Numbered from the stretch's first letter, positions 2,514 to 58,910 are shown. The stretch is DNA of 64,000 nt from Promethearchaeota archaeon (GCA_048940925.1 JBHLOC010000004.1:96554-160553); one strand, 5' to 3'. Translations and numbers: made by a program. Notes: generated from the letters alone by a model not told the origin.

Positions 2514-3647
2514 CTACAAAAACTTATCTAAATTTGTTTTTTCATCTATTCTTTCTACATATGGTTTAATAATATCAATTTCTTTTTTATAAAAGCCTTC
2601 TAATTGGTTAAGTTTATCATTTTTATATATATTATGCACTGACTCTTTCAGATTATTCAACTTTAAACCAGCCCATTTCATAGTTGTATTAGATTTCCCT
2701 GTTTTTACGAGATCAAGGTATTCTTTATTCAAAAGAAGTTCAGATATTTTATAATTCCATTTTCTATAGTCTTTTGGAATCCATCTTTTGATACGGATAG
2801 GCAAATTGTTTTTTTGAGATAATTTGAATAATTTCGAATGCATCTTTTGGACATAATCAGCAGGAGGATGTATTTGACCTTTGTATAAGTTTAAAAGTGG
2901 TTTAACAACATGCTGATATTTACTATTTTTTAGTTTTTTAATGAAATATTCAGCTTGTAAGTCTCTTAGAGTCAACCCTGGACTGATTAAAATAAAATCT
3001 GCTCCTGCTTCTTTTGTTTTTTTGATAACATCTTTTAGATTTTTTTCATTATCTTCTAAAAAGGGAATAATTGGAATAAAATAAGTACCCACCTGGATTT
3101 GAGGTGCTTTATTTTTTATAATTTTTAATGCTTCAAGTCGCTCCGCAGGTGAAGACGAATAAGGTTCTAAAAATTTTGCTAATTCTTCATTTGTAGTAGA
3201 GATAGAGAAACCTATAGTACACCAAGTATCATCTGCAATTTTTTTAAGAATATCACCATCTCGAGTAATTAATTTAGACTTAGTAGCGACATTAATTGGA
3301 GACTTATGTTTTGCTATAACTTGCAAGACTTTTCTTGTTTGTTCAACTTTACTTTCAATTGGTTGATATGCATCATTTACACCACCGGGAGCTATTACAT
3401 CTGGTAATAGTGTCCGAGCTCTTTTAAGTCTGAGATCTAATTTTTTATCAAAATCAGTTTTGATAATGATTTCATTTTCAAAATCTTCTAAATAATAACG
3501 TTGACTTCGGGCATCACAATATATACATGCATGGGCACATCCAGAATATGCATTTAAGGTGTAACGTGCCCAAAACCAGGAATCTGGATATTTTAATTTG
3601 TTTATTACACTTTTAAATTCTTTATAAATATATTTAACCATATTCAT
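2514..3647 (-). CDS. Radical SAM protein, SplB/Rv2578c-like (DNA repair-associated)
   Basis: LNAYSGCAHACIYCDAR (CxxxCxxC), DAYQPIE, TKS motifs; adjacent to the AlkD-like gene. Confidence 0.85.
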   Translation of the reverse strand: MNMVKYIYKEFKSVINKLKYPDSWFWARYTLNAYSGCAHACIYCDARSQRYYLEDFENEIIIKTDFDKKLDLRLKRARTLLPDVIAPGGVNDAYQPIESKVEQTRKVLQVIAKHKSPINVATKSKLITRDGDILKKIADDTWCTIGFSISTTNEELAKFLEPYSSSPAERLEALKIIKNKAPQIQVGTYFIPIIPFLEDNEKNLKDVIKKTKEAGADFILISPGLTLRDLQAEYFIKKLKNSKYQHVVKPLLNLYKGQIHPPADYVQKMHSKLFKLSQKNNLPIRIKRWIPKDYRKWNYKISELLLNKEYLDLVKTGKSNTTMKWAGLKLNNLKESVHNIYKNDKLNQLEGFYKKEIDIIKPYVERIDEKTNLDKFL

Positions 3648-3726
3648 GAGAATTGAATTTGTAAGCTCAATAATTATGATAAAAATAAAAGATTATTGAA
3701 ATAGCGTACAAAAAGATGAAAAGGAT

Positions 3727-3807
3727 GAAAAAACGCCATTTTTAATAAATAATAAAGTGATCTAATATTCAATATGGAAATGGAAAATATTCGTATGGCG
3801 TTTTTTC
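3727..3807. repeat. 81-bp element with perfect 13-bp terminal inverted repeats (MITE-like)
   Basis: GAAAAAACGCCAT (3727-3739) / ATGGCGTTTTTTC (3795-3807), flanked on both sides by GAT. Confidence 0.5.
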
Positions 3808-3915
3808 GATATTAATACACAAGTTTGTAAATTTAACTTTATGCTTTTTGAATTATAAACAGTCTATTTCTTTATTAAAAAAGCATATAATATTTAATAA
3901 AAATTAGAAAATGAA

Positions 3916-3987
3916 TGCGTCGCCCGGGAATCGAACCCGGGTTACCGGCTTGGAAGGCCGGAATCCTGACCCCTAGACTAGCGACGC
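3916..3987 (-). tRNA. tRNA-Gly(TCC), intronless, CCA not encoded
   Basis: GCGTCGC acceptor stem, anticodon arm CCGGC-CT-TCC-AA-GCCGG, T-arm CCGGG-TTCGATT-CCCGG. Confidence 0.97.
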
Positions 3988-4029
3988 TTATAAATAAAAA
4001 AAGCATCATTTCATTTAACTTTAGCGATT

Positions 4030-4704
4030 TTATTGAATTTTATAATTTAATTCATAAAGAGTTATTATTTTATTAACAGCTACCCACGCATCTAAGGGGA
4101 ATTTTGAAAGTGAGATAATATTTTTAGAGAGTTTAAAGATATCGTCTGAAAAGTGACCTTTTTGGAATCCACCTATAATAACTATGAGATTTTCTGAAAG
4201 ATTTTTCAAAAATAATTCTTGATAATTTAGCACTAATTTACCTTTACTTGAAAATAAAAAGATTTCTGGCGTTTTAAATGTATGAATTAGATCCTTTATA
4301 GTTCCATTGAAATGAGATATTAATTCTGTATTAATGATAGTTATATTTTCGTCAATCAGTAATTTTCCCATTAATCCTTTAAATCGATTATAATTTCTTG
4401 CAATTCTAATTTTCGGATCAAATTTGAAAATTTTATTATTTACTGTATGAATGTATAATTTTAAATTCCCAGTTTTATTTAGAGGAGAACCTAAAGCATT
4501 TAGTAAGCATAAATGAACTATATCTGGACGACCCCTTTTTTCTAAATTTTTTAAATTTTTCATAGCAGTATGATGTAGTGCATTGTCTAAAAGTTGGGAA
4601 GAGAAAATACGTGAAGAGAGATTTCTTTTAATAGCAGGATGATTTCTAATCTCTTTAGGTATTAATTCTATTCCACATTCTACAAGAATAATAATCAATG
4701 GCAT
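4030..4704 (-). CDS. nep1: rRNA small subunit pseudouridine methyltransferase Nep1/Emg1
   Basis: GRPDIVHLCLL, RIARNYNRFKGLM, IGGFQKG SPOUT motifs. Confidence 0.92.
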   Translation of the reverse strand: MPLIIILVECGIELIPKEIRNHPAIKRNLSSRIFSSQLLDNALHHTAMKNLKNLEKRGRPDIVHLCLLNALGSPLNKTGNLKLYIHTVNNKIFKFDPKIRIARNYNRFKGLMGKLLIDENITIINTELISHFNGTIKDLIHTFKTPEIFLFSSKGKLVLNYQELFLKNLSENLIVIIGGFQKGHFSDDIFKLSKNIISLSKFPLDAWVAVNKIITLYELNYKIQ

Positions 4705-4733
4705 GTAGAAATTTAATCTCTTTTTTATTTATT

Positions 4734-5081
4734 TTAATTTTTTTGCATATTTTTTAATTTAATAAAGTATCGAGTTGTTTTATTACAATCGAAACAAGTT
4801 AAAGAAACATGAGAGCCTTTTCCTTTATGAGAATGCATTCTGACTCTACAATTCAATCCGGGGTATAAGAAATTTTTACATTTATTGCATATGTGTTTTT
4901 TCCACTCAGCAGGGATTTTAATTTTTGCTCTTTGTGCATAACGTCTAGCTAAATAAACATATTTATTTGCTAATTCCTTTTTCTCAGGAAATATTTCATG
5001 AGCTCTTTGGAATAAATATAACATACGATTGTTTGCTATACTTTTTATAATATATTTAGATTTTGGGTTTCTTTTCGGCAT
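4734..5081 (-). CDS. rnp4: RNase P protein component 4 (Rpp21)
   Basis: IA..RM..LF, YV.LAR, CNKC...PG...CFDC Zn ribbon; conserved synteny. Confidence 0.92.
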   Translation of the reverse strand: MPKRNPKSKYIIKSIANNRMLYLFQRAHEIFPEKKELANKYVYLARRYAQRAKIKIPAEWKKHICNKCKNFLYPGLNCRVRMHSHKGKGSHVSLTCFDCNKTTRYFIKLKNMQKN

Positions 5082-5107
5082 TTAGTAACTCAATAGGTCG
5101 AAATGAC

Positions 5108-5404
5108 TTAATTTAATTTTCTAATCTGTTCTAAAGAGAGAATAAATATTTTTCCTCTAACATCTACCAAATAGGATTGAGTTAATTGAGAAGTTTGGTT
5201 TGCCAATTCTTTTATATTTGATTTTGTTGCTATTGACTTTAATGCTTTGATTTTAATAATTTTATATCTTTTTAATAAATTAGTTACATGAGTGAGAAAG
5301 TCATCAGTAATTCCTTTCTTACCTAAAATGCAATGTGGTGGTGATAATGCCACTTTTTTAAATTCTTTTTGATAATCCATCGTCCTAGAACTCATAAAAT
5401 ACAA
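5108..5404 (-). CDS. YhbY/CRM-domain RNA-binding protein
   Basis: ILGKKGIT, IIKIK, VDVRGKIFIL (GxxG-like). Confidence 0.85.
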   Translation of the reverse strand: MYFMSSRTMDYQKEFKKVALSPPHCILGKKGITDDFLTHVTNLLKRYKIIKIKALKSIATKSNIKELANQTSQLTQSYLVDVRGKIFILSLEQIRKLN

Positions 5405-5485
5405 AAATTTTTAATTTATTCTAACTTTTAAAACGTATCAAATATAATAAAGAATGATTGAATTAAAGATTAATATCTTAGAAAA

Positions 5486-5911
5486 ATGTCAATATATGTC
5501 GTCCAACCACAAAAACTAATAAAAGAAATAGCAGAGAAATTAAAAGAGTTTCCTGAAATTAACCCTCCTAAAGGTTCTGAATTTTGGAAGACAGCTTTTT
5601 TTAAAGAATTAGCTCCTACTGATTCAGAGAATTTTTGGTATATTCGATGTGCCTCATTACTTAGAAAGATTAAAAAATTTCAACCTATTGGAGTAAACAA
5701 ACTCAGAAAACACTATGGGGGAAAAAATAGAAAAGGAAGTGGACTGAAGCATTCTGCAAAAGGAAGTGGAAAAATAATACGCCTTGCTCTGCAGCAGTTA
5801 GAAAAAGCAAATTTGATCGAAAATAAGGAAAAACTGGGAAGAGTTCTATCACCTGAAGGCATAAGTTTGTTAGAAAGGACGGCATATTCAATTTTAAGGA
5901 ATAAAAGTTAA
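5486..5911 (+). CDS. rps19e: 30S ribosomal protein S19e
   Basis: KELAP...FWYIRCASLLRK, YGG, GSGKIIRLALQQLE. Confidence 0.96.
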   Translation: MSIYVVQPQKLIKEIAEKLKEFPEINPPKGSEFWKTAFFKELAPTDSENFWYIRCASLLRKIKKFQPIGVNKLRKHYGGKNRKGSGLKHSAKGSGKIIRLALQQLEKANLIENKEKLGRVLSPEGISLLERTAYSILRNKS

Positions 5912-50383: not shown

Positions 50384-51019
50384 ATGAATTTTGAAGAATT
50401 AACAGAGCTTATTATTGAATTAGAAGTAGATGACATTGCTGATGCTGTAAAACAAGCATTAGATGAGGATAAAGATCCTTTTGATATATTAAATGCTTTA
50501 ACAAAAGGAATGGATGAGGTTGGTCGGCGTTATGAGGAGAAAGAATATTATTTAACAGAACTAGTTCTTGCTGGAGAAACGATGAAAGAAGCTTTCAATG
50601 TTCTCAGACCTGCGTTAGCTGCGTCTGATAAATCACAGGATAAAGTTAAAATAATTCTCGGTACAGTAAAAGGTGATAATCATGATATTGGAAAGAATAT
50701 ACTTGGTTCTCTATTATTAAGTTCTGGATTTGAACTTTATGATTTAGGTATGGATGTCGATGAAAACATAATAGTTGAAAAAGTAAAAGAAACTGGGGCA
50801 CAGATAATCGCTTTGAGCTCACTTCTTACTATGACAGTTGAACAAATTAAAGTCGTTCATGAAGCTTTGCAATCTGCGGGTTTAAGAGATAAGGTTAAAT
50901 TAATAGTAGGAGGAGCTCCTTTAAACCTGGAATTAGCAGAAAAGTTAGGAGCAGACGATTTTGCAGATGATGCTGTGGAAGGAGTAAAACATATTAAGCA
51001 GTTAGCTGGAATGAAATAA
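50384..51019 (+). CDS. Corrinoid (B12-binding) methyltransferase cognate protein
   Basis: Cap domain GMDEVG.RYE..EYYL.EL; GDNHDIGKN (DxHxxG), LSSLLT, VGGAP. Confidence 0.93.
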   Translation: MNFEELTELIIELEVDDIADAVKQALDEDKDPFDILNALTKGMDEVGRRYEEKEYYLTELVLAGETMKEAFNVLRPALAASDKSQDKVKIILGTVKGDNHDIGKNILGSLLLSSGFELYDLGMDVDENIIVEKVKETGAQIIALSSLLTMTVEQIKVVHEALQSAGLRDKVKLIVGGAPLNLELAEKLGADDFADDAVEGVKHIKQLAGMK

Positions 51020-51282
51020 CATCAAAAGTTATAAATTCTACTTATTTTTAAATCATTTAATTACTATCTAAAGCGTATTTTTTTTGGAGATTTATAAATT
51101 ATAAGCGTCTTTTCTTTTTTTTTATGACTTTTTTATATTTATTCTTAAATTTGATTAAATTATAATAAGAATATTTATACTTCTTACCAGTCGTTTATAA
51201 CACAGAAGTTAATGTGATCAAATTAAATATTAGAATAAAATATTAACGAAAATGTAATGAAAATTAAAAGGAGGTTGCATAT

Positions 51283-51537
51283 TTGACTAAAAATAAAAGT
51301 AAAGAACTTGAATATACAGAGGAATTAGATACAAGAGGTCTTTTCTGTCCAGAACCATTGTTTGAAGTTCGGAATTTTAGTGAGAATCTTGAAGTAGGTC
51401 AATGTTTTAAGGTCATCGCTGATGATCCTGCAGCTGAAGAAGACTTAAAACGTTGGGCAAAAAGAACCGATACTCAATTAGTTGAATTTCATAAGGACGG
51501 GGAAGATTTGATATTTTATTTTAAAAAAAAGGAATAA
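51283..51537 (+). CDS. tusA: TusA-family sulfurtransferase
   Basis: LDTRGLFCPEP, ADDPAA..D...WA. Confidence 0.9.
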   Translation: MTKNKSKELEYTEELDTRGLFCPEPLFEVRNFSENLEVGQCFKVIADDPAAEEDLKRWAKRTDTQLVEFHKDGEDLIFYFKKKE

Positions 51538-51552
51538 AGAGGATTCATAAAA

Positions 51553-51915
51553 TTGTCTGAAAAAAAACATATTTTATATGTACAAACAACTGACGCTCCA
51601 GAAAAACAATACAGTCCGCTTGTTTTAGCTCAAGCTGCAAAAGCAATGGAAATAGAAGCAACTGTGTATTATTTAGGAACGGGATTAAAAATATTAAAAC
51701 CTGGTGAAGCAGAAAAAATTAAATTAGGTAATTTTCCTAGTGTGAAAGAAATGATTGATAAGACATTAGAGATGGGTGTTGAAATTTTAGTGTGTGAAGC
51801 TTCAAAGCGTATGTTAGGATGGGATCAAGTAGATCTTATTCCAGAAGTTAAAATTGTGGGAGCGGCTACATTAAATGATTTAGTTTTAGATGTTGATGCT
51901 ACTCAATGGTTTTAG
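51553..51915 (+). CDS. DsrE-family sulfur-relay protein
   Basis: P..LA..A.AM, G...L, GVEILVCEAS, V.IVGAAT. Confidence 0.88.
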   Translation: MSEKKHILYVQTTDAPEKQYSPLVLAQAAKAMEIEATVYYLGTGLKILKPGEAEKIKLGNFPSVKEMIDKTLEMGVEILVCEASKRMLGWDQVDLIPEVKIVGAATLNDLVLDVDATQWF

Positions 51916-51954
51916 ATATTAAATATAATTATATAATAAAGGAGAATCAAAAAA

Positions 51955-53148
51955 ATGAATGTCTATTTAGATTATCAGGCAGCAAAGCCTGTTGATGTAA
52001 GAGCCATTTCAGAAATGACAGTATATTTAAATCAGAAATTTGCTAACCCAGCATCTCTTCACTGTGAGGGTGATGATGCTACAGATGCTTTAGTGGAATA
52101 TCGAAGTAAAGTTGCAGAATTTATTAATGCTCCCGATCCAGAATCTATAATATTCACATCTGGAGCAACTGAATCGAATAATTTAGCATTAATAGGCACT
52201 GCAATGAGATATAGGAAAAAGGGTAATCATATTATAATTTCAGAAATAGAACACATTTCAATTTTGAATATTGCTAAATATTTAGAACGAGAAGGCTTTA
52301 AAGTTAGTAGAGTTCCAGTAGATCAATATGGAATTATAAATCTCGATAAACTTGAACGGTTAATTACTGATAAAACAATTTTAATATCTATTGCTACTGC
52401 AAGTAATGAAGTTGGTTCACTTCAACCAATTAAGGAAATAAGTGAAATTGCTATGAAAAACAAAATTTTATTTCACACTGACGCTGTTGCTAGCGAAAGT
52501 GTTATACCTATAGATGTTCAAGAAATTCCAGTTGATATGATGACATTATCTTCAAATGATATTTATGGACCAAGAGGAATTGGTGCTTTATACTTGAAGA
52601 AAGGTGTTAGAATTAATCCTATTATCATTGGAGGAGGCCAAGAAAGAGGATTGAGATCTGGTTCTGAGAATGTACCAGGGATTGTGGGTTTTGGAAAGGC
52701 TGCTGAAATAATGAGGAGAGAAATTGGCGAAGAAGCTAATAGATTACAGATTTTAAGGGATAAGTTAATTAATGGGATATTAGAAACTATTCCGAACTCC
52801 CATTTAAATGGTCATCCCGAAAAAAGACTTCCTCATAATGCTCACTTCAGATTTGATTATATAGAAGGTGAATCGTTAATACTTGGTTTAAAAGATGAAA
52901 AGGTAGCAGCCGCAACAGGATCTGCGTGTAGTTCAAAAACTTTAGAACCTTCTCACACTTTGATGGCAATGGGTCTATTACATGAAGAAGCTCATGGTTC
53001 ACTTGTGATAACTCTTGGTCGTTATACTAAAGAAAAAGATATTGATAAACTCATAGAAGTTTTACCTAAAATTGTAAAAAGGTTAAGATTATTATCACCA
53101 TTAACTCCTCCTGATTTAATAAAAAAATATAATGAGGTGAAAGAATAA
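51955..53148 (+). CDS. iscS: IscS/NifS-family protein lacking the PLP Schiff-base lysine
   Basis: YLDY.A, NPAS.H, FTSGATESNN, IEH.S, RSG.EN, GSACSS; SSND replaces S.HK. Confidence 0.9.
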   Translation: MNVYLDYQAAKPVDVRAISEMTVYLNQKFANPASLHCEGDDATDALVEYRSKVAEFINAPDPESIIFTSGATESNNLALIGTAMRYRKKGNHIIISEIEHISILNIAKYLEREGFKVSRVPVDQYGIINLDKLERLITDKTILISIATASNEVGSLQPIKEISEIAMKNKILFHTDAVASESVIPIDVQEIPVDMMTLSSNDIYGPRGIGALYLKKGVRINPIIIGGGQERGLRSGSENVPGIVGFGKAAEIMRREIGEEANRLQILRDKLINGILETIPNSHLNGHPEKRLPHNAHFRFDYIEGESLILGLKDEKVAAATGSACSSKTLEPSHTLMAMGLLHEEAHGSLVITLGRYTKEKDIDKLIEVLPKIVKRLRLLSPLTPPDLIKKYNEVKE

Positions 53149-53149
53149 A

Positions 53150-53953
53150 ATGAAATCAACTCAGTATAGTGAGAAAGTTTTAGATCATTTTCGAAATCCA
53201 AGGAATATGGGAGAAATCGAAAATGCTGATGGTTTTGGGCGTGTTGGTAACCCTGTATGTGGTGATCTAATGTTTATGTATATTAAAGTTGCTAAAAACG
53301 ATAAAGATGAAGAATATCTTGAAGATGTAAAATTTAAGACATTTGGATGTGGCTCAGCAGTTGCTACTTCGTCAATGATCACTGAGATGGCGAAAGGATT
53401 ACCATTAGATGAAGCTTATAAAATATCAAGACAAGACGTAGCTGAAGAATTAGAAGGGCTTCCACCAATTAAAATGCATTGTTCAAATCTTGCAGCAGAT
53501 GCTTTAAAAGCTGCTATTGATAACTATAGAACTGGTTCTGAACCTGAAGTAGAAGTACCCACAGCATGTCAGCTAGAAATTCAATTAGTAATGGGTTTTG
53601 ATGAATTTCTCGGAAAAGGGACATATAAAGAAATTCCTAAGGATTTAGATAAATTTAGGGATAAAAGGATTCTAATTGTAGATTCCGGTGATGAGTCTTT
53701 AGAACTCGCCTTAAAATTAACGGATTATACAGGAAGAGTAGTTGTAGCAACTTCTTCAAAAGAGATCCCTGGAAGAGAATTAATAGCTAAGAGACTAAAA
53801 AAATCAGACGTAAAAATATTACAGCAATCTGAGCTTTTAGAGGTTAAAGGAGAACTCAATGAGGTCGACAGGGCAGTTATCCACGATTTCGATGAAAATG
53901 AGAATTATGAGCTATATGTAGATATTATTATATATTTAGATTATAGAGGATAG
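53150..53953 (+). CDS. iscU: IscU/NifU scaffold fused to a degenerate thioredoxin-reductase NADPH-binding domain
   Basis: YSEKVLDHFRNPRN, GNPVCGD, FGCGSA, LPPIKMHCS; C-terminal G.DEFLGKG...FRDKRILIV..GD..LELAL.LT. Confidence 0.88.
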   Translation: MKSTQYSEKVLDHFRNPRNMGEIENADGFGRVGNPVCGDLMFMYIKVAKNDKDEEYLEDVKFKTFGCGSAVATSSMITEMAKGLPLDEAYKISRQDVAEELEGLPPIKMHCSNLAADALKAAIDNYRTGSEPEVEVPTACQLEIQLVMGFDEFLGKGTYKEIPKDLDKFRDKRILIVDSGDESLELALKLTDYTGRVVVATSSKEIPGRELIAKRLKKSDVKILQQSELLEVKGELNEVDRAVIHDFDENENYELYVDIIIYLDYRG

Positions 53954-54044: not shown

Positions 54045-55181
54045 CTAGGGTTTTTTTATAGATTCTAAGATATAATCTGTTACATATTTACTTTCTATAT
54101 TCATTTTATTTTTATAATTGACATATCTAAAATTAAATACACATAAAGGGCACGATGATACAAGCTCTTTAGTGTCTAGCTTATCGAATAATTCTTTGCC
54201 AATTTTAATAGAAATACTACTATCAACTCCTCTAATTCCCGAACCTGCTCCGCAACAAGGACATTCTTCAGGATTATCTGAAAGTTCATTAATTTCTAAG
54301 CCACATTTCTTTAATAGCTCTCGTGGTTCAGAGAATAAAGATTTGCCTTTATTTTTTCTCCCTAATCGGCAAGGATCATGATAAGTAATCGATTTATTTA
54401 AAGGTTTTAATTTAATTTTGCCATTTTTTTCTAAATCAGAAATAACATCAATAATATGTTTTACGTTTAAATTATAATCCTTGCAATATTTTCTGTAAAC
54501 TTGATCAAAGGCATATAGACAACCACCGCAAGTAACAATTAAATTTTTTATTCCATTTTTTTTGAACATCTCTATATTTTCTTCAAAGATTCTTTTAGCC
54601 AAATCGATATTTCCTGTCGAATAGATATATTCTCCACAACATGGTTCTTTTTCTAAAATTTTAAAGTTAAATTCTGCCTGTTTTAGAATTTGATAAGGAA
54701 TAGTAGCGCTTTCTTTTACTCGGAATGAAGACATACATCCAAAAAATAATAATGTATCTGATTCCTTTTTTTCAAAAATCTCAGTTTTTTTATAATTTTC
54801 AGGCAACCAATTTAACCTTTCTTCCGGATTTCCGTTGACAGAATTATCTTTTTCAATTATTCCGTTAATAATTTTATTATGAATTTCTAATGGCGCTTTT
54901 TCTTCCTTTACTAAGGCTATTTTAGAGGAGTGAATAATTTCTGATATGTTTATAGATTGTTGGCAACTTAAATCACATAACGCACATAGAGTACAAGTAT
55001 AAAGGCTCACAAGTTCTTCTTGAGAAATCTCATGGTTATTAAACACTTTTTTGGCTATCTTTAATCTTCCATTAGGAGACTTCAATAGATCATTGGTTAC
55101 TAGATATGTATCACATACATCTAAGCATATTTTACAATCTATACATGATTCTATTTCTTCTATTAATTTATTTTCAACCAT
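54045..55181 (-). CDS. Fe-S oxidoreductase (HdrD/GlpC-like: 2x[4Fe-4S] + two CCG domains)
   Basis: CIDCKICLDVC, CTLCALCDLSC, EPCCG, YHDPCRLGR, CCGAG, SCPLC. Confidence 0.9.
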   Translation of the reverse strand: MVENKLIEEIESCIDCKICLDVCDTYLVTNDLLKSPNGRLKIAKKVFNNHEISQEELVSLYTCTLCALCDLSCQQSINISEIIHSSKIALVKEEKAPLEIHNKIINGIIEKDNSVNGNPEERLNWLPENYKKTEIFEKKESDTLLFFGCMSSFRVKESATIPYQILKQAEFNFKILEKEPCCGEYIYSTGNIDLAKRIFEENIEMFKKNGIKNLIVTCGGCLYAFDQVYRKYCKDYNLNVKHIIDVISDLEKNGKIKLKPLNKSITYHDPCRLGRKNKGKSLFSEPRELLKKCGLEINELSDNPEECPCCGAGSGIRGVDSSISIKIGKELFDKLDTKELVSSCPLCVFNFRYVNYKNKMNIESKYVTDYILESIKKP

Positions 55182-57820: not shown

Positions 57821-58420
57821 ATGGAGGCAAAAACTATGAAAGAAACTGCTAAAAAATTAATGAATGCCTATGCTGGTGAAGCACAAGCAAATTATAGATA
57901 CAGAAATTTCGCTAAAATAGCTAAAAAGGAGGGATATGTGTTGATATCTAAAATATTCCAAGAAACAGCAGATCAAGAATTTCAACATGGTAGTAAATTT
58001 TATACACATTTGCAAGAATTCAAGAAAGAAGAACCCTTTGATGAATTCGAAGTAGAGGCAAGTTATCCCACTACATATGGTACTACAATTGAAAATCTTA
58101 AATCTGCAATTGCAGGGGAAAATATGGAATGGCAAACTCTGTATCCAGATTTAGCCAACACAGCTGAAAAAGAAGGATATCCACATATTGCTAATAGGAC
58201 ACGGGCAATTATACGTGCTGAAAAACACCATTCAGAACGTTATGGTAAGCTCTTGAAGTTAGCTGGTGATGACGCATTCTTCAAACGTGGAGAAAAAATA
58301 ATATGGGTTTGTATGGAATGCGGTTATGAAGTAGAAATGGATGAGTTACCAAAGAATTGGGAATGCCCTAGCTGTGGACATAGCAGAGCATACTTCAGAA
58401 AGAAATGTGAAGACTTCTAA
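57821..58420 (+). CDS. rbr: Rubrerythrin
   Basis: AYAGEAQA, E..H twice, AIAGE..E, C-terminal CMECG...CPSCG. Confidence 0.95.
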   Translation: MEAKTMKETAKKLMNAYAGEAQANYRYRNFAKIAKKEGYVLISKIFQETADQEFQHGSKFYTHLQEFKKEEPFDEFEVEASYPTTYGTTIENLKSAIAGENMEWQTLYPDLANTAEKEGYPHIANRTRAIIRAEKHHSERYGKLLKLAGDDAFFKRGEKIIWVCMECGYEVEMDELPKNWECPSCGHSRAYFRKKCEDF

Positions 58421-58520: not shown

Positions 58521-58910
58521 ATGGAAAAAAAAGAAATTTACAAATGCGAAGTATGCGGTAAAGTAATTGAAATTCTTAATCCTGTTGCCCACGAAACGAT
58601 TTGCTGTGAACAACCAATGAAATTAATGAATCCCCAAACAAAAGACTGGAAAACAGAAAAACATGTTCCAAAAATCACGGTAGAGGGGAATAAGGTTACT
58701 GTGGATGTTGGAATCTCCATGGGTACTCCACATCCTATGACTGAAGAGCATTGGATTATGTGGATTGAAATTATGTGTGAAGGTGGCTGTTATGAAAGGC
58801 GATTTCTAAACCCAGGGGATGAACCTAAAGCCACATTTACAGTTGCCAACCCTGAGGGTCTTAAGGCAAGGGAATTCTGCAACATTCATGGTTTATGGAT
58901 TTCAGAATAA
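58521..58910 (+). CDS. dfx: Desulfoferrodoxin (superoxide reductase)
   Basis: CEVCG...CC N-domain, EKHVP, HPM..EHWI, CNIHGLW. Confidence 0.95.
   Translation: MEKKEIYKCEVCGKVIEILNPVAHETICCEQPMKLMNPQTKDWKTEKHVPKITVEGNKVTVDVGISMGTPHPMTEEHWIMWIEIMCEGGCYERRFLNPGDEPKATFTVANPEGLKAREFCNIHGLWISE

Follow-up and report, generated by a model that had tools for sequence, protein, structure and literature searches.

The window analysed here, a 64,000-nucleotide stretch of DNA from a Promethearchaeota archaeon (GCA_048940925.1 JBHLOC010000004.1:96554-160553), contains a compact operon in which the genes of two sulfur carriers precede those of an IscS-IscU pair of the type that takes part in building iron-sulfur (Fe-S) clusters. 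The source genome (4.8 Mb, ~28% G+C) is that of a Loki-type Asgard archaeon, and the nearest homologs are labelled Promethearchaeota or Lokiarchaeota. An earlier reading of the bare DNA, referred to below as the original prediction, had placed four co-oriented and closely packed genes at positions 51283-53953, and exactly this arrangement was recovered. Four open reading frames on the plus strand, separated by gaps of 15, 39 and 1 bp, encode in this order a TusA protein, a DsrE3-like protein, an IscS lacking the lysine that binds pyridoxal phosphate (PLP), hereafter Lys-less IscS, and an IscU (Table 1). Purine-rich, GGAGG-like ribosome-binding sites were found ahead of the first three genes; tusA starts with a TTG codon, and its GGAGG site lies 7 bp before it. 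Absent from the original prediction was the unusual build of the IscU, which has 267 residues and carries an extra C-terminal domain of 133 residues.

The best solved relative of the window IscS was Archaeoglobus fulgidus IscS2 (4EB5_A, E 1.2e-138; also 4EB7 and 4HVK), and the motifs TLSSNDIYGP, DAVAS and GSACSS, to which the original prediction had drawn attention, were all read in the translation. Asp202 aligns with the lysine that forms the Schiff base with PLP, and the site does not conform to S-x-H-K. The aligned site of 4EB5 likewise reads SSNDIYGP, and that of the engineered D199K variant (4R5F) reads SSNKIYGP; the window IscS is of the A. fulgidus Lys-to-Asp type, as the original prediction had proposed. 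The positions of Gln183, His205 and Arg354 are occupied by Ala, Asn and Val, respectively (we take these numbers, and those of Lys206, His104, Asp180 and Cys328 below, to be E. coli numbering), and the mobile-loop Cys325 is retained within GSACSS. The protein scored under every NCBIfam equivalog cut-off for NifS/IscS.

Among the best 120 database homologs (82-100% identity), the lysine position was occupied by Asp in 102 and by Glu in 18, and the loop cysteine was kept. Because all of these nearest homologs carry Asp or Glu, the altered site is a conserved state under purifying selection and not damage or a sequencing accident. Decay of the gene into a pseudogene was considered and rejected on the same grounds, the site being unchanged over this range of identity. 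More distantly, an alignment-based count found 17 of the best 150 representatives at 50% identity to be without the lysine, with Asp, Thr, Ser, Gln, Ala, Pro, Met or Gly in its place. Several Lys-less IscS orthologs from a sister genus (e.g. G255, G238, G231, G234, G268 and G260) were listed with one in-frame stop in the match; these stops may be alignment overruns, and the gene was intact at the one locus that was read (L027).

A residue census was then taken from an alignment of 287 IscS-like proteins, in which 138 proteins with Asp or Glu at the lysine position (D/E-type) were compared with 136 Lys-type proteins. Four residues of the PLP and substrate site were lost together in the D/E-type: Lys206, which defines the Lys-type set; Gln183, replaced by Ala in 128/138 and present in 131/136 Lys-type proteins; His205, replaced by Asn in 137/138 and present in 113/136; and Arg354, found in 0/138 against 135/136. 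Three others were kept in both types, namely His104 (137/138 and 136/136), Asp180 (138/138 and 135/136) and Cys328 (138/138 and 134/136). In a FastTree phylogeny of the 287 proteins, computed with the trait columns removed and with an Archaeoglobus sp. ortholog in but the A. fulgidus protein itself out, the 138 D/E-type proteins and 4 other Lys-less proteins formed one clade of 142 (support 93) that held no Lys-type member.

It could be argued from the retained fold, His104, Asp180 and loop cysteine that cysteine desulfurase function persists in the protein, on the basis of a different cofactor arrangement or substrate. The joint loss of four PLP and substrate residues in 138 proteins speaks against this, as does the A. 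fulgidus member, for which two papers (PMC7585200, PMC13066941) report no desulfurase activity and describe a cysteine that serves as a ligand to the IscU-borne [2Fe-2S] cluster. We therefore regard residual desulfurase activity as extremely unlikely, and the window IscS is predicted to be unable to make persulfide from cysteine. The A. fulgidus protein reportedly also lacks bound PLP, and it is the loop cysteine that reportedly acts as the cluster's fourth ligand.

If the two carriers serve this IscS, their genes should accompany it in other genomes, as the original prediction had expected, and this linkage proved to be conserved. In a search of 400 genomes of the phylum, 35 loci were chosen by IscS similarity only, representing at least 7 family codes. 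The tusA gene was directly upstream of the Lys-less IscS gene in 35/35 of these Asgard loci, with dsrE between the two in 23/35. A global scan of 185,579 species genomes with the back-translated motif SSN[D/E]xYGP[K/R]GxG gave at least 119 loci, at least 117 of which have an IscS bearing the motif. These loci were picked by the motif itself and many are from related genomes, so the fractions given for them, which all refer to the matches listed, are descriptive and not independent counts. At least 1 kb of upstream sequence was available for 88 loci, and tusA was found upstream on the same strand in 77/88, dsrE in 55/88 and either carrier in 80/88, while iscU was directly downstream in 78/94 assessable loci. 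Outside the Asgard archaea, tusA was upstream in 57/68 loci, and among bacterial loci in 20/22.

The cassette was thereby found in at least 10 archaeal and bacterial groups. Archaeal sources were Bathyarchaeia, Loki-, Thor-, Hermod-, Hod- and Odin-type Asgards, Thermoplasmatota, Hadarchaeota, Methanosarcinales, Methanocellales, Methanophagales, Archaeoglobus and Geoglobus; bacterial sources included Actinomycetota, Desulfobacterota, Aminicenantes and others. The Archaeoglobus locus (L156) has the order TusA-IscS-IscU, with an IscU of 154 aa and no DsrE seen at the locus. A second sample comprised the gene neighbourhoods of Lys-less representatives from clusters other than that of the query. 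Here the order was TusA-DsrE-IscS-IscU for a protein with Ser at the lysine site, DsrE-IscS-IscU for one with Ala, TusA-IscS for one with Asp and IscS-TusA for one with Thr; three representatives were without carriers. A locus of a different composition (L052:2853-6635) lacks both TusA and DsrE; there, a PF04060 FeS-domain protein is followed by a Lys-less IscS with the sequence AFSGSDLYGP, by IscU and by another class V aminotransferase.

Lys-bearing IscS genes served as controls. A hidden Markov model search, sensitive enough to find the other TusA of the genome at E 2e-11, detected TusA or DsrE within 4 kb of a Lys-bearing IscS in 0/15 Asgard loci. The same held for four Lys-bearing representatives elsewhere (0/4), 3 of which have IscU, so that the carriers were linked to 0/19 Lys-bearing loci.

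Both carriers have the expected cysteines. The window TusA holds a persulfide-type Cys22 in DxxGxxCPxP (DTRGLFCPEP) and scored 67.5 bits against a Pfam cut-off of 28.6; its best solved relative was E. coli TusA (1DCJ/3LVJ_C, E 2e-8). The window DsrE reached 54.5 bits with Pfam DsrE, and its Cys81 aligned with the cysteine of its best solved relative, 3MC3 (S. solfataricus SSO1125, DsrE3A; E 1.8e-12). From this closest solved relative the protein is tentatively assigned as DsrE3-like. Across the cassettes, Cys22 was conserved in 126/127 TusA proteins and the active-site Cys81 in 83/83 DsrE proteins. The genome also encodes two stand-alone paralogs of the cassette DsrE that are 81-82% identical to it (contig 41, 137412-137777; contig 51, 2316-2669), one of which lies 3 kb from a canonical IscS locus, beside small winged-helix and Lrp-like genes. 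At one further locus (L190; G398 contig 10, ~2781-5803), three tandem TusA-type frames are followed by DsrE, Lys-less IscS and IscU.

The conservation of these cysteines also bears on whether sulfur carriers are needed at all. Free sulfide, which has been shown to be the sulfur source of methanogens, might enter IscU directly, leaving to TusA and DsrE no more than the regulation or stabilisation of the complex. Minimal SUF systems can run on sulfide, according to bioRxiv 10.1101/2024.03.20.586028 and PMC13066941, and the host organisms inhabit sulfidic sediments. Such a route, however, fails to explain the invariant or near-invariant persulfide cysteines of both carriers, the occurrence of the carriers only with the Lys-less type (0/19 controls) and the reductase fused to IscU in some cassettes (see below), and we consider it very unlikely.

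If sulfur is relayed by the carriers, the order in which they act has to be decided. DsrE3 proteins have been reported to donate sulfur preferentially to TusA (bioRxiv 10.1101/2023.12.18.572138), and the window DsrE is closest to DsrE3A. TusA was also the more constant partner of the Lys-less IscS, with 88% versus 63% for DsrE among the matches listed. Since, in addition, E. coli TusA docks on IscS, a relay from DsrE via TusA to IscS is probably likelier than one from TusA via DsrE to IscS; the latter order, given in the original prediction, is thus probably to be reversed. A structure prediction of two Lys-less IscS with TusA, each with its own alignment, gave a score of 0.00; controls were absent, and the score counts neither for nor against this docking.

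At the receiving end of the proposed relay, residues 1-134 of IscU form a scaffold domain with Cys37, Asp39, Cys67, His110, Cys111 and L104-P-P-I-K108, all of which were invariant in 41 orthologs. This domain matched 7C8M (E 3e-50) and 4EB5_C (E 1e-46) and scored 189.5 with NCBIfam NifU_clost, for which the cut-off is 187.9. An AlphaFold (AF2) model of the protein, with a predicted local distance difference test (pLDDT) value of 83, showed two domains with a disordered linker between them, and the scaffold domain fitted IscU structures at template-modelling (TM) scores of 0.83-0.92.

The second domain resembles part of a reductase. Residues 149-260 matched positions 119-230 only of the TRX_reduct profile, which correspond to the NAD(P)H subdomain, and a Foldseek comparison of the C-domain with 2ZBW_B gave a root-mean-square deviation of 1.6 Å over 121 columns (E 1e-9, 30% identity). 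No FAD domain and no CxxC were found in the C-domain of the window, and its GxGxxG loop reads DSGDES. Judged from profile and model together, residues 135-267 represent the NAD(P)H subdomain, in degenerate form, of a thioredoxin reductase (TrxR)-like or ferredoxin-NADP+ reductase (FNR)-like flavoprotein. With these motifs, the short C-domain is predicted to be unable to bind flavin and probably does not bind NAD(P)H either; most likely, it is a docking or regulatory remnant.

Complete versions of the fusion exist in other cassettes. An IscU joined to a whole flavoprotein (Pyr_redox_2) with an intact GxGxxA was found in one Asgard family (L041, 448 aa, 1335-2681 on the minus strand), where it includes the FAD-binding domain, in Methanosarcinales (L079) and in an uncultured archaeon (L146), the latter two with 443-444 aa. 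All short fusions, archaeal or bacterial, are without the first glycine of the GxGxxG/A loop. The C-domain was carried by 41/94 cassettes of the motif scan among the matches listed, and all 35 Asgard loci have an IscU with the extra domain, adjacent in 33 and within 3.1 kb in 2. A word-indexed search with the C-domain returned Loki-type fusions only; its wider spread is visible through the loci of the motif scan. To our knowledge, no scaffold-reductase fusion of IscU with a flavoprotein has been described. Because bacterial cassettes with the short C-domain (Actinomycetota, Desulfobacterota and Aminicenantes) nest within an Asgard-rich clade of the IscS tree (support 99), the phylogeny suggests that the whole cassette was transferred between domains.

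The cassette is not the only route to Fe-S clusters in this organism. One canonical IscS gene lies beside an IscU gene on contig 41 and a second one on contig 5, both with HK, DAVQ and the arginine (Arg354), and three further IscU-like genes and one SufB-like gene are present. Contamination (8.4% for this genome) was rejected as the origin of the canonical genes, since 14/15 genomes of the family have a 64-73% identical ortholog. The Lys-bearing IscS-IscU pair on contig 41 (L001, 131643-134937) is in convergent orientation with a gene for a ThiF/MoeB-like E1 and another gene of the TusA family, and a ThiS/MoaD-like gene whose product ends in GG stands beside it; the locus looks like a classical outward sulfur route to a thiocarboxylate carrier. 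As the same genome has canonical IscS genes and a SufB-like gene, the idea of Fe-S assembly that is not fed by cysteine desulfuration can hold for the cassette but not, as the original prediction had worded it, for the organism. For Thor-type genomes, in which a single IscS-like match had turned up, reliance on the Lys-less IscS alone was considered and rejected, because a Pfam search found SufS-type genes with an RSGAHC motif in five genomes.

These other genes also help to judge the direction of flow. The cassette could work outwards or sideways, with IscS-IscU handing over sulfur from an IscU cluster or from Cys325-bound sulfide, and with TusA and DsrE passing it on to tRNA thiolation, molybdopterin or other thio-cofactors. 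Its gene set mirrors the IscS-TusA-TusBCD relay of E. coli, DsrE being of the TusD family (Pfam; PMC13066941), and sulfur transferases have been described as networks without strict direction (bioRxiv 10.1101/2023.12.18.572138). A Lys-less IscS, however, is predicted to be incapable of making persulfide from cysteine, and no MnmA, TusE, MoeB or ThiS-like gene belongs to the conserved cassette, whereas genes of the ThiF-TusA-ThiS type are found on a different contig, at the canonical IscS locus. With IscU retained in 83% of loci among the matches listed, an outward flow appears quite unlikely.

Of the genes around the cassette (Table 1), the HdrD/TfrB-like CCG protein had been named in the original prediction as a possible supplier of sulfur or electrons. 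It adjoins the cassette in 4/35 Asgard loci only, all from the window's genus, and such a role is not borne out by this poorly conserved neighbourhood. The other supplier named was a CoA-persulfide reductase. This 796-aa protein matched 3ICR (E 4e-171), Npsr 3NTA (E 1e-154) and the CoA-persulfide reductase 8A56 (E 2.5e-143), and the motifs SFANCGLPY (redox Cys), YCEVGYRS and ICHSGSRS (rhodanese active Cys) were read in it. By these similarities it is probably of the persulfide-reductase type, with an added TusA domain and a second rhodanese. In the window's family, 11/17 loci have a CoADR-rhodanese gene no more than 3 kb from the cassette, against 0/18 loci of other Asgard families; it is a lineage-specific neighbour and a possible loader of sulfane sulfur. 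One may speculate that this neighbour acts as a local loader or overflow valve for sulfane sulfur. The genes for rubrerythrin and desulfoferrodoxin follow directly after it, giving an oxidative or sulfur-stress neighbourhood. On the other side of the cassette, upstream of the predicted promoter region, lies a gene for a stand-alone B12-binding protein, with no adjoining methyltransferase.

Table 1. Features of the cassette and its surroundings, in positions of the window
Feature	Position	Strand	Basis or remark
B12-binding_2 + B12-binding protein, stand-alone	50384..51019		
AT-rich intergenic stretch, probable promoter region (predicted)	51020..51282	+	263 bp without open reading frame, TTTATA-like stretches
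TusA-family sulfur carrier, 84 aa	51283..51537	+	Pfam TusA, E 9e-19
DsrE3-like sulfur carrier, 120 aa	51553..51915	+	Pfam DsrE, E 2e-14
Lys-less IscS, A. fulgidus IscS2 type, 397 aa	51955..53148	+	Pfam Aminotran_5, E 5e-74, full length
IscU (53150..53953), scaffold domain, residues 1-134	53150..53551	+	Pfam NifU_N, E 1e-45
IscU, C-terminal domain, residues 135-267	53552..53953	+	NCBIfam TRX_reduct, E 6e-10
HdrD/TfrB-like iron-sulfur protein, 2x[4Fe-4S] + 2 CCG domains	54045..55181	-	Pfam CCG, E 8e-23; Fer4_8
CoADR-rhodanese-TusA-rhodanese protein, 796 aa	55315..57705	+	Pfam Pyr_redox_2, 2 Rhodanese, TusA
Rubrerythrin	57821..58420		
Desulfoferrodoxin	58521..58910		

This neighbourhood invites another explanation, in which the cassette would hold, repair or transfer clusters, or act as a buffer for reactive sulfane sulfur under stress: IscS-IscU would carry clusters, TusA and DsrE would be persulfide sinks, and no cluster would be assembled de novo. 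It would suit the persulfide-reductase-type enzyme, rubrerythrin and desulfoferrodoxin beside the cassette, the proposal that some DsrE groups detoxify reactive sulfur (bioRxiv 10.1101/2023.12.18.572138) and the presence of other Fe-S assembly systems in the organism. The stress-type neighbours are, however, lineage-specific, while the four-gene core is common to at least 10 groups among the matches listed, and IscU keeps every residue of an assembly scaffold. We regard such a module as unlikely.

Instead, we favour an ISC-type scaffold system that takes protein-bound sulfane sulfur rather than cysteine, and we give this reading a probability of roughly 55%. The presumably trimeric DsrE3-like carrier would take up sulfane sulfur on Cys81 and hand it to Cys22 of TusA. 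As in E. coli, TusA would dock on the dimer of IscS, but sulfur would flow in the opposite direction and the loop Cys325 would be persulfidated; the loop would then swing to IscU, where the sulfur would be reduced and built into the cluster. In the full-length relatives, the fused NAD(P)H flavoprotein could plausibly give the two electrons per sulfur that the persulfide route demands. A reductase fused to the scaffold would fit a supply of zero-valent sulfur (S0), because persulfide sulfur needs electrons and sulfide would not. Polysulfide or CoA persulfide may be the source from which the CoADR-rhodanese-TusA-rhodanese enzyme charges the relay in the window's family. The cassette would work beside the two canonical IscS systems and the SufB-like (minimal SUF-type) gene, without replacing them.

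Several points weigh against this reading. The mechanism as a whole rests on gene order and analogy, and the global-scan loci, picked by their motif, include many from related genomes, so that their fractions are not independent. Among the matches listed, 8/88 loci are without a carrier upstream (7 with none nearby and one, L085, with tusA immediately after the IscS gene), and a third of the assessable loci have no DsrE. With two canonical IscS genes and a SufB-like gene in the genome, the cassette is not needed for Fe-S supply, and Thor-type genomes with the cassette likewise carry SufS-type genes. The reading does not account for where a strict anaerobe in a sulfide environment would obtain sulfane sulfur, nor, as the reductase remnant of the window has lost its nucleotide motif, for a source of electrons in this protein.

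Taken together, the original idea that TusA and DsrE feed a pseudo-desulfurase and IscU retains the type of IscS and the conserved linkage, and gives up the order of the relay, the organism-wide claim and the CCG neighbour; the transfer itself is put forward by analogy. The cassette is plausibly an ISC-type system with persulfide carriers where desulfurase chemistry used to be, a mechanism that we infer throughout. More tentatively, and with less confidence than in the reading above, the Lys-less IscS-IscU pairs might, instead of being relics, be the core of a widespread, single-origin, cysteine-independent ISC branch in anaerobes, in which sulfur would pass from DsrE3 via TusA and the loop cysteine of a PLP-free IscS to IscU, with electrons originally from the IscU-fused flavoprotein.

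The IscS-IscU complex of A. fulgidus, although its IscS is inactive, has served since 2012 as a structural model of how Fe-S clusters are assembled, and the linkage described here suggests a sulfur source for complexes of this type. If true, the proposal would answer where the A. fulgidus pair obtains its sulfur and would demonstrate that sulfur can cross the IscS-TusA interface in the opposite direction. It also bears on how strict anaerobes build clusters without cysteine desulfuration, and it implies that many genes now labelled 'cysteine desulfurase' are something different. A hint at the missing electron donor comes from the fusions of IscU with a reductase. Since Asgard archaea, Bathyarchaeia, methanogens with their relatives and several phyla of anaerobic bacteria commonly have the cassette, the proposal, if true, would concern a large part of subsurface life. 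The linkage offers a concrete hypothesis on four small, soluble proteins.

The pairing of a Lys-less IscS with IscU is already known from A. fulgidus. A literature search found no description of this IscS type encoded with TusA or DsrE, though its coverage of subscription journals was partial and an earlier description is possible; with the same partial coverage, it found no description of an IscU fused to a TrxR-like domain. Among the closest known systems is the IscS2-IscU pair of A. fulgidus (AF0564/AF0565; 4EB5, 4EB7, 4HVK), which has the same SSNDIYGP, DA(V/T)AS and GSACSS motifs and IscU directly downstream. Unlike the window IscU, the A. fulgidus IscU has 153 aa and is without the reductase-like domain, and the pair has been published alone, with no link to TusA or DsrE found in the same literature search. 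Similar, too, is the isc1 cluster of M. acetivorans (IscS1 MA0808, IscU1 MA0807), in which, according to PMC7585200 and PMC13066941, IscS1 is without the PLP residues; IscU1 is oversized at 24.2 kDa, recombinant IscS1 was insoluble, and the cluster is uncharacterised.

The extra domain of IscU is comparable to TrxR-like ferredoxin-NADP+ reductases such as that of T. thermophilus (2ZBW), on whose NAD(P)H subdomain it superposes. Unlike these enzymes, the window C-domain is predicted not to be a reductase, given its missing FAD domain and CxxC and its DSGDES loop. Sulfur oxidisers have DsrE3-TusA pairs (DsrE3A of Metallosphaera cuprina, DsrE3C of Hyphomicrobium, 3MC3) that share with the cassette the adjacent dsrE and tusA genes and the aligned active cysteine. 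Those pairs, however, feed dissimilatory oxidation (sHdr, rDsr), and no such enzymes are linked in the cassette.

With the IscS-TusA-TusBCD relay of E. coli (3LVJ), the cassette has the families IscS, TusA and DsrE/TusD in common. In E. coli, persulfide is formed by an active IscS and passed on to TusA for the thiolation of tRNA, whereas the cassette has IscU as its constant partner and is linked to neither TusE nor MnmA. Because the cassette IscS is, in addition, predicted to be unable to make persulfide, the flow is probably reversed. Finally, the MIS system (Garcia et al. 2022, as described in PMC13066941) consists of an IscS-like/IscU-like pair without chaperones or carriers and occurs in anaerobic archaea and bacteria. 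It is described with a cysteine desulfurase (MisS), whereas the cassette has a Lys-less member of the family and two persulfide carriers in addition.

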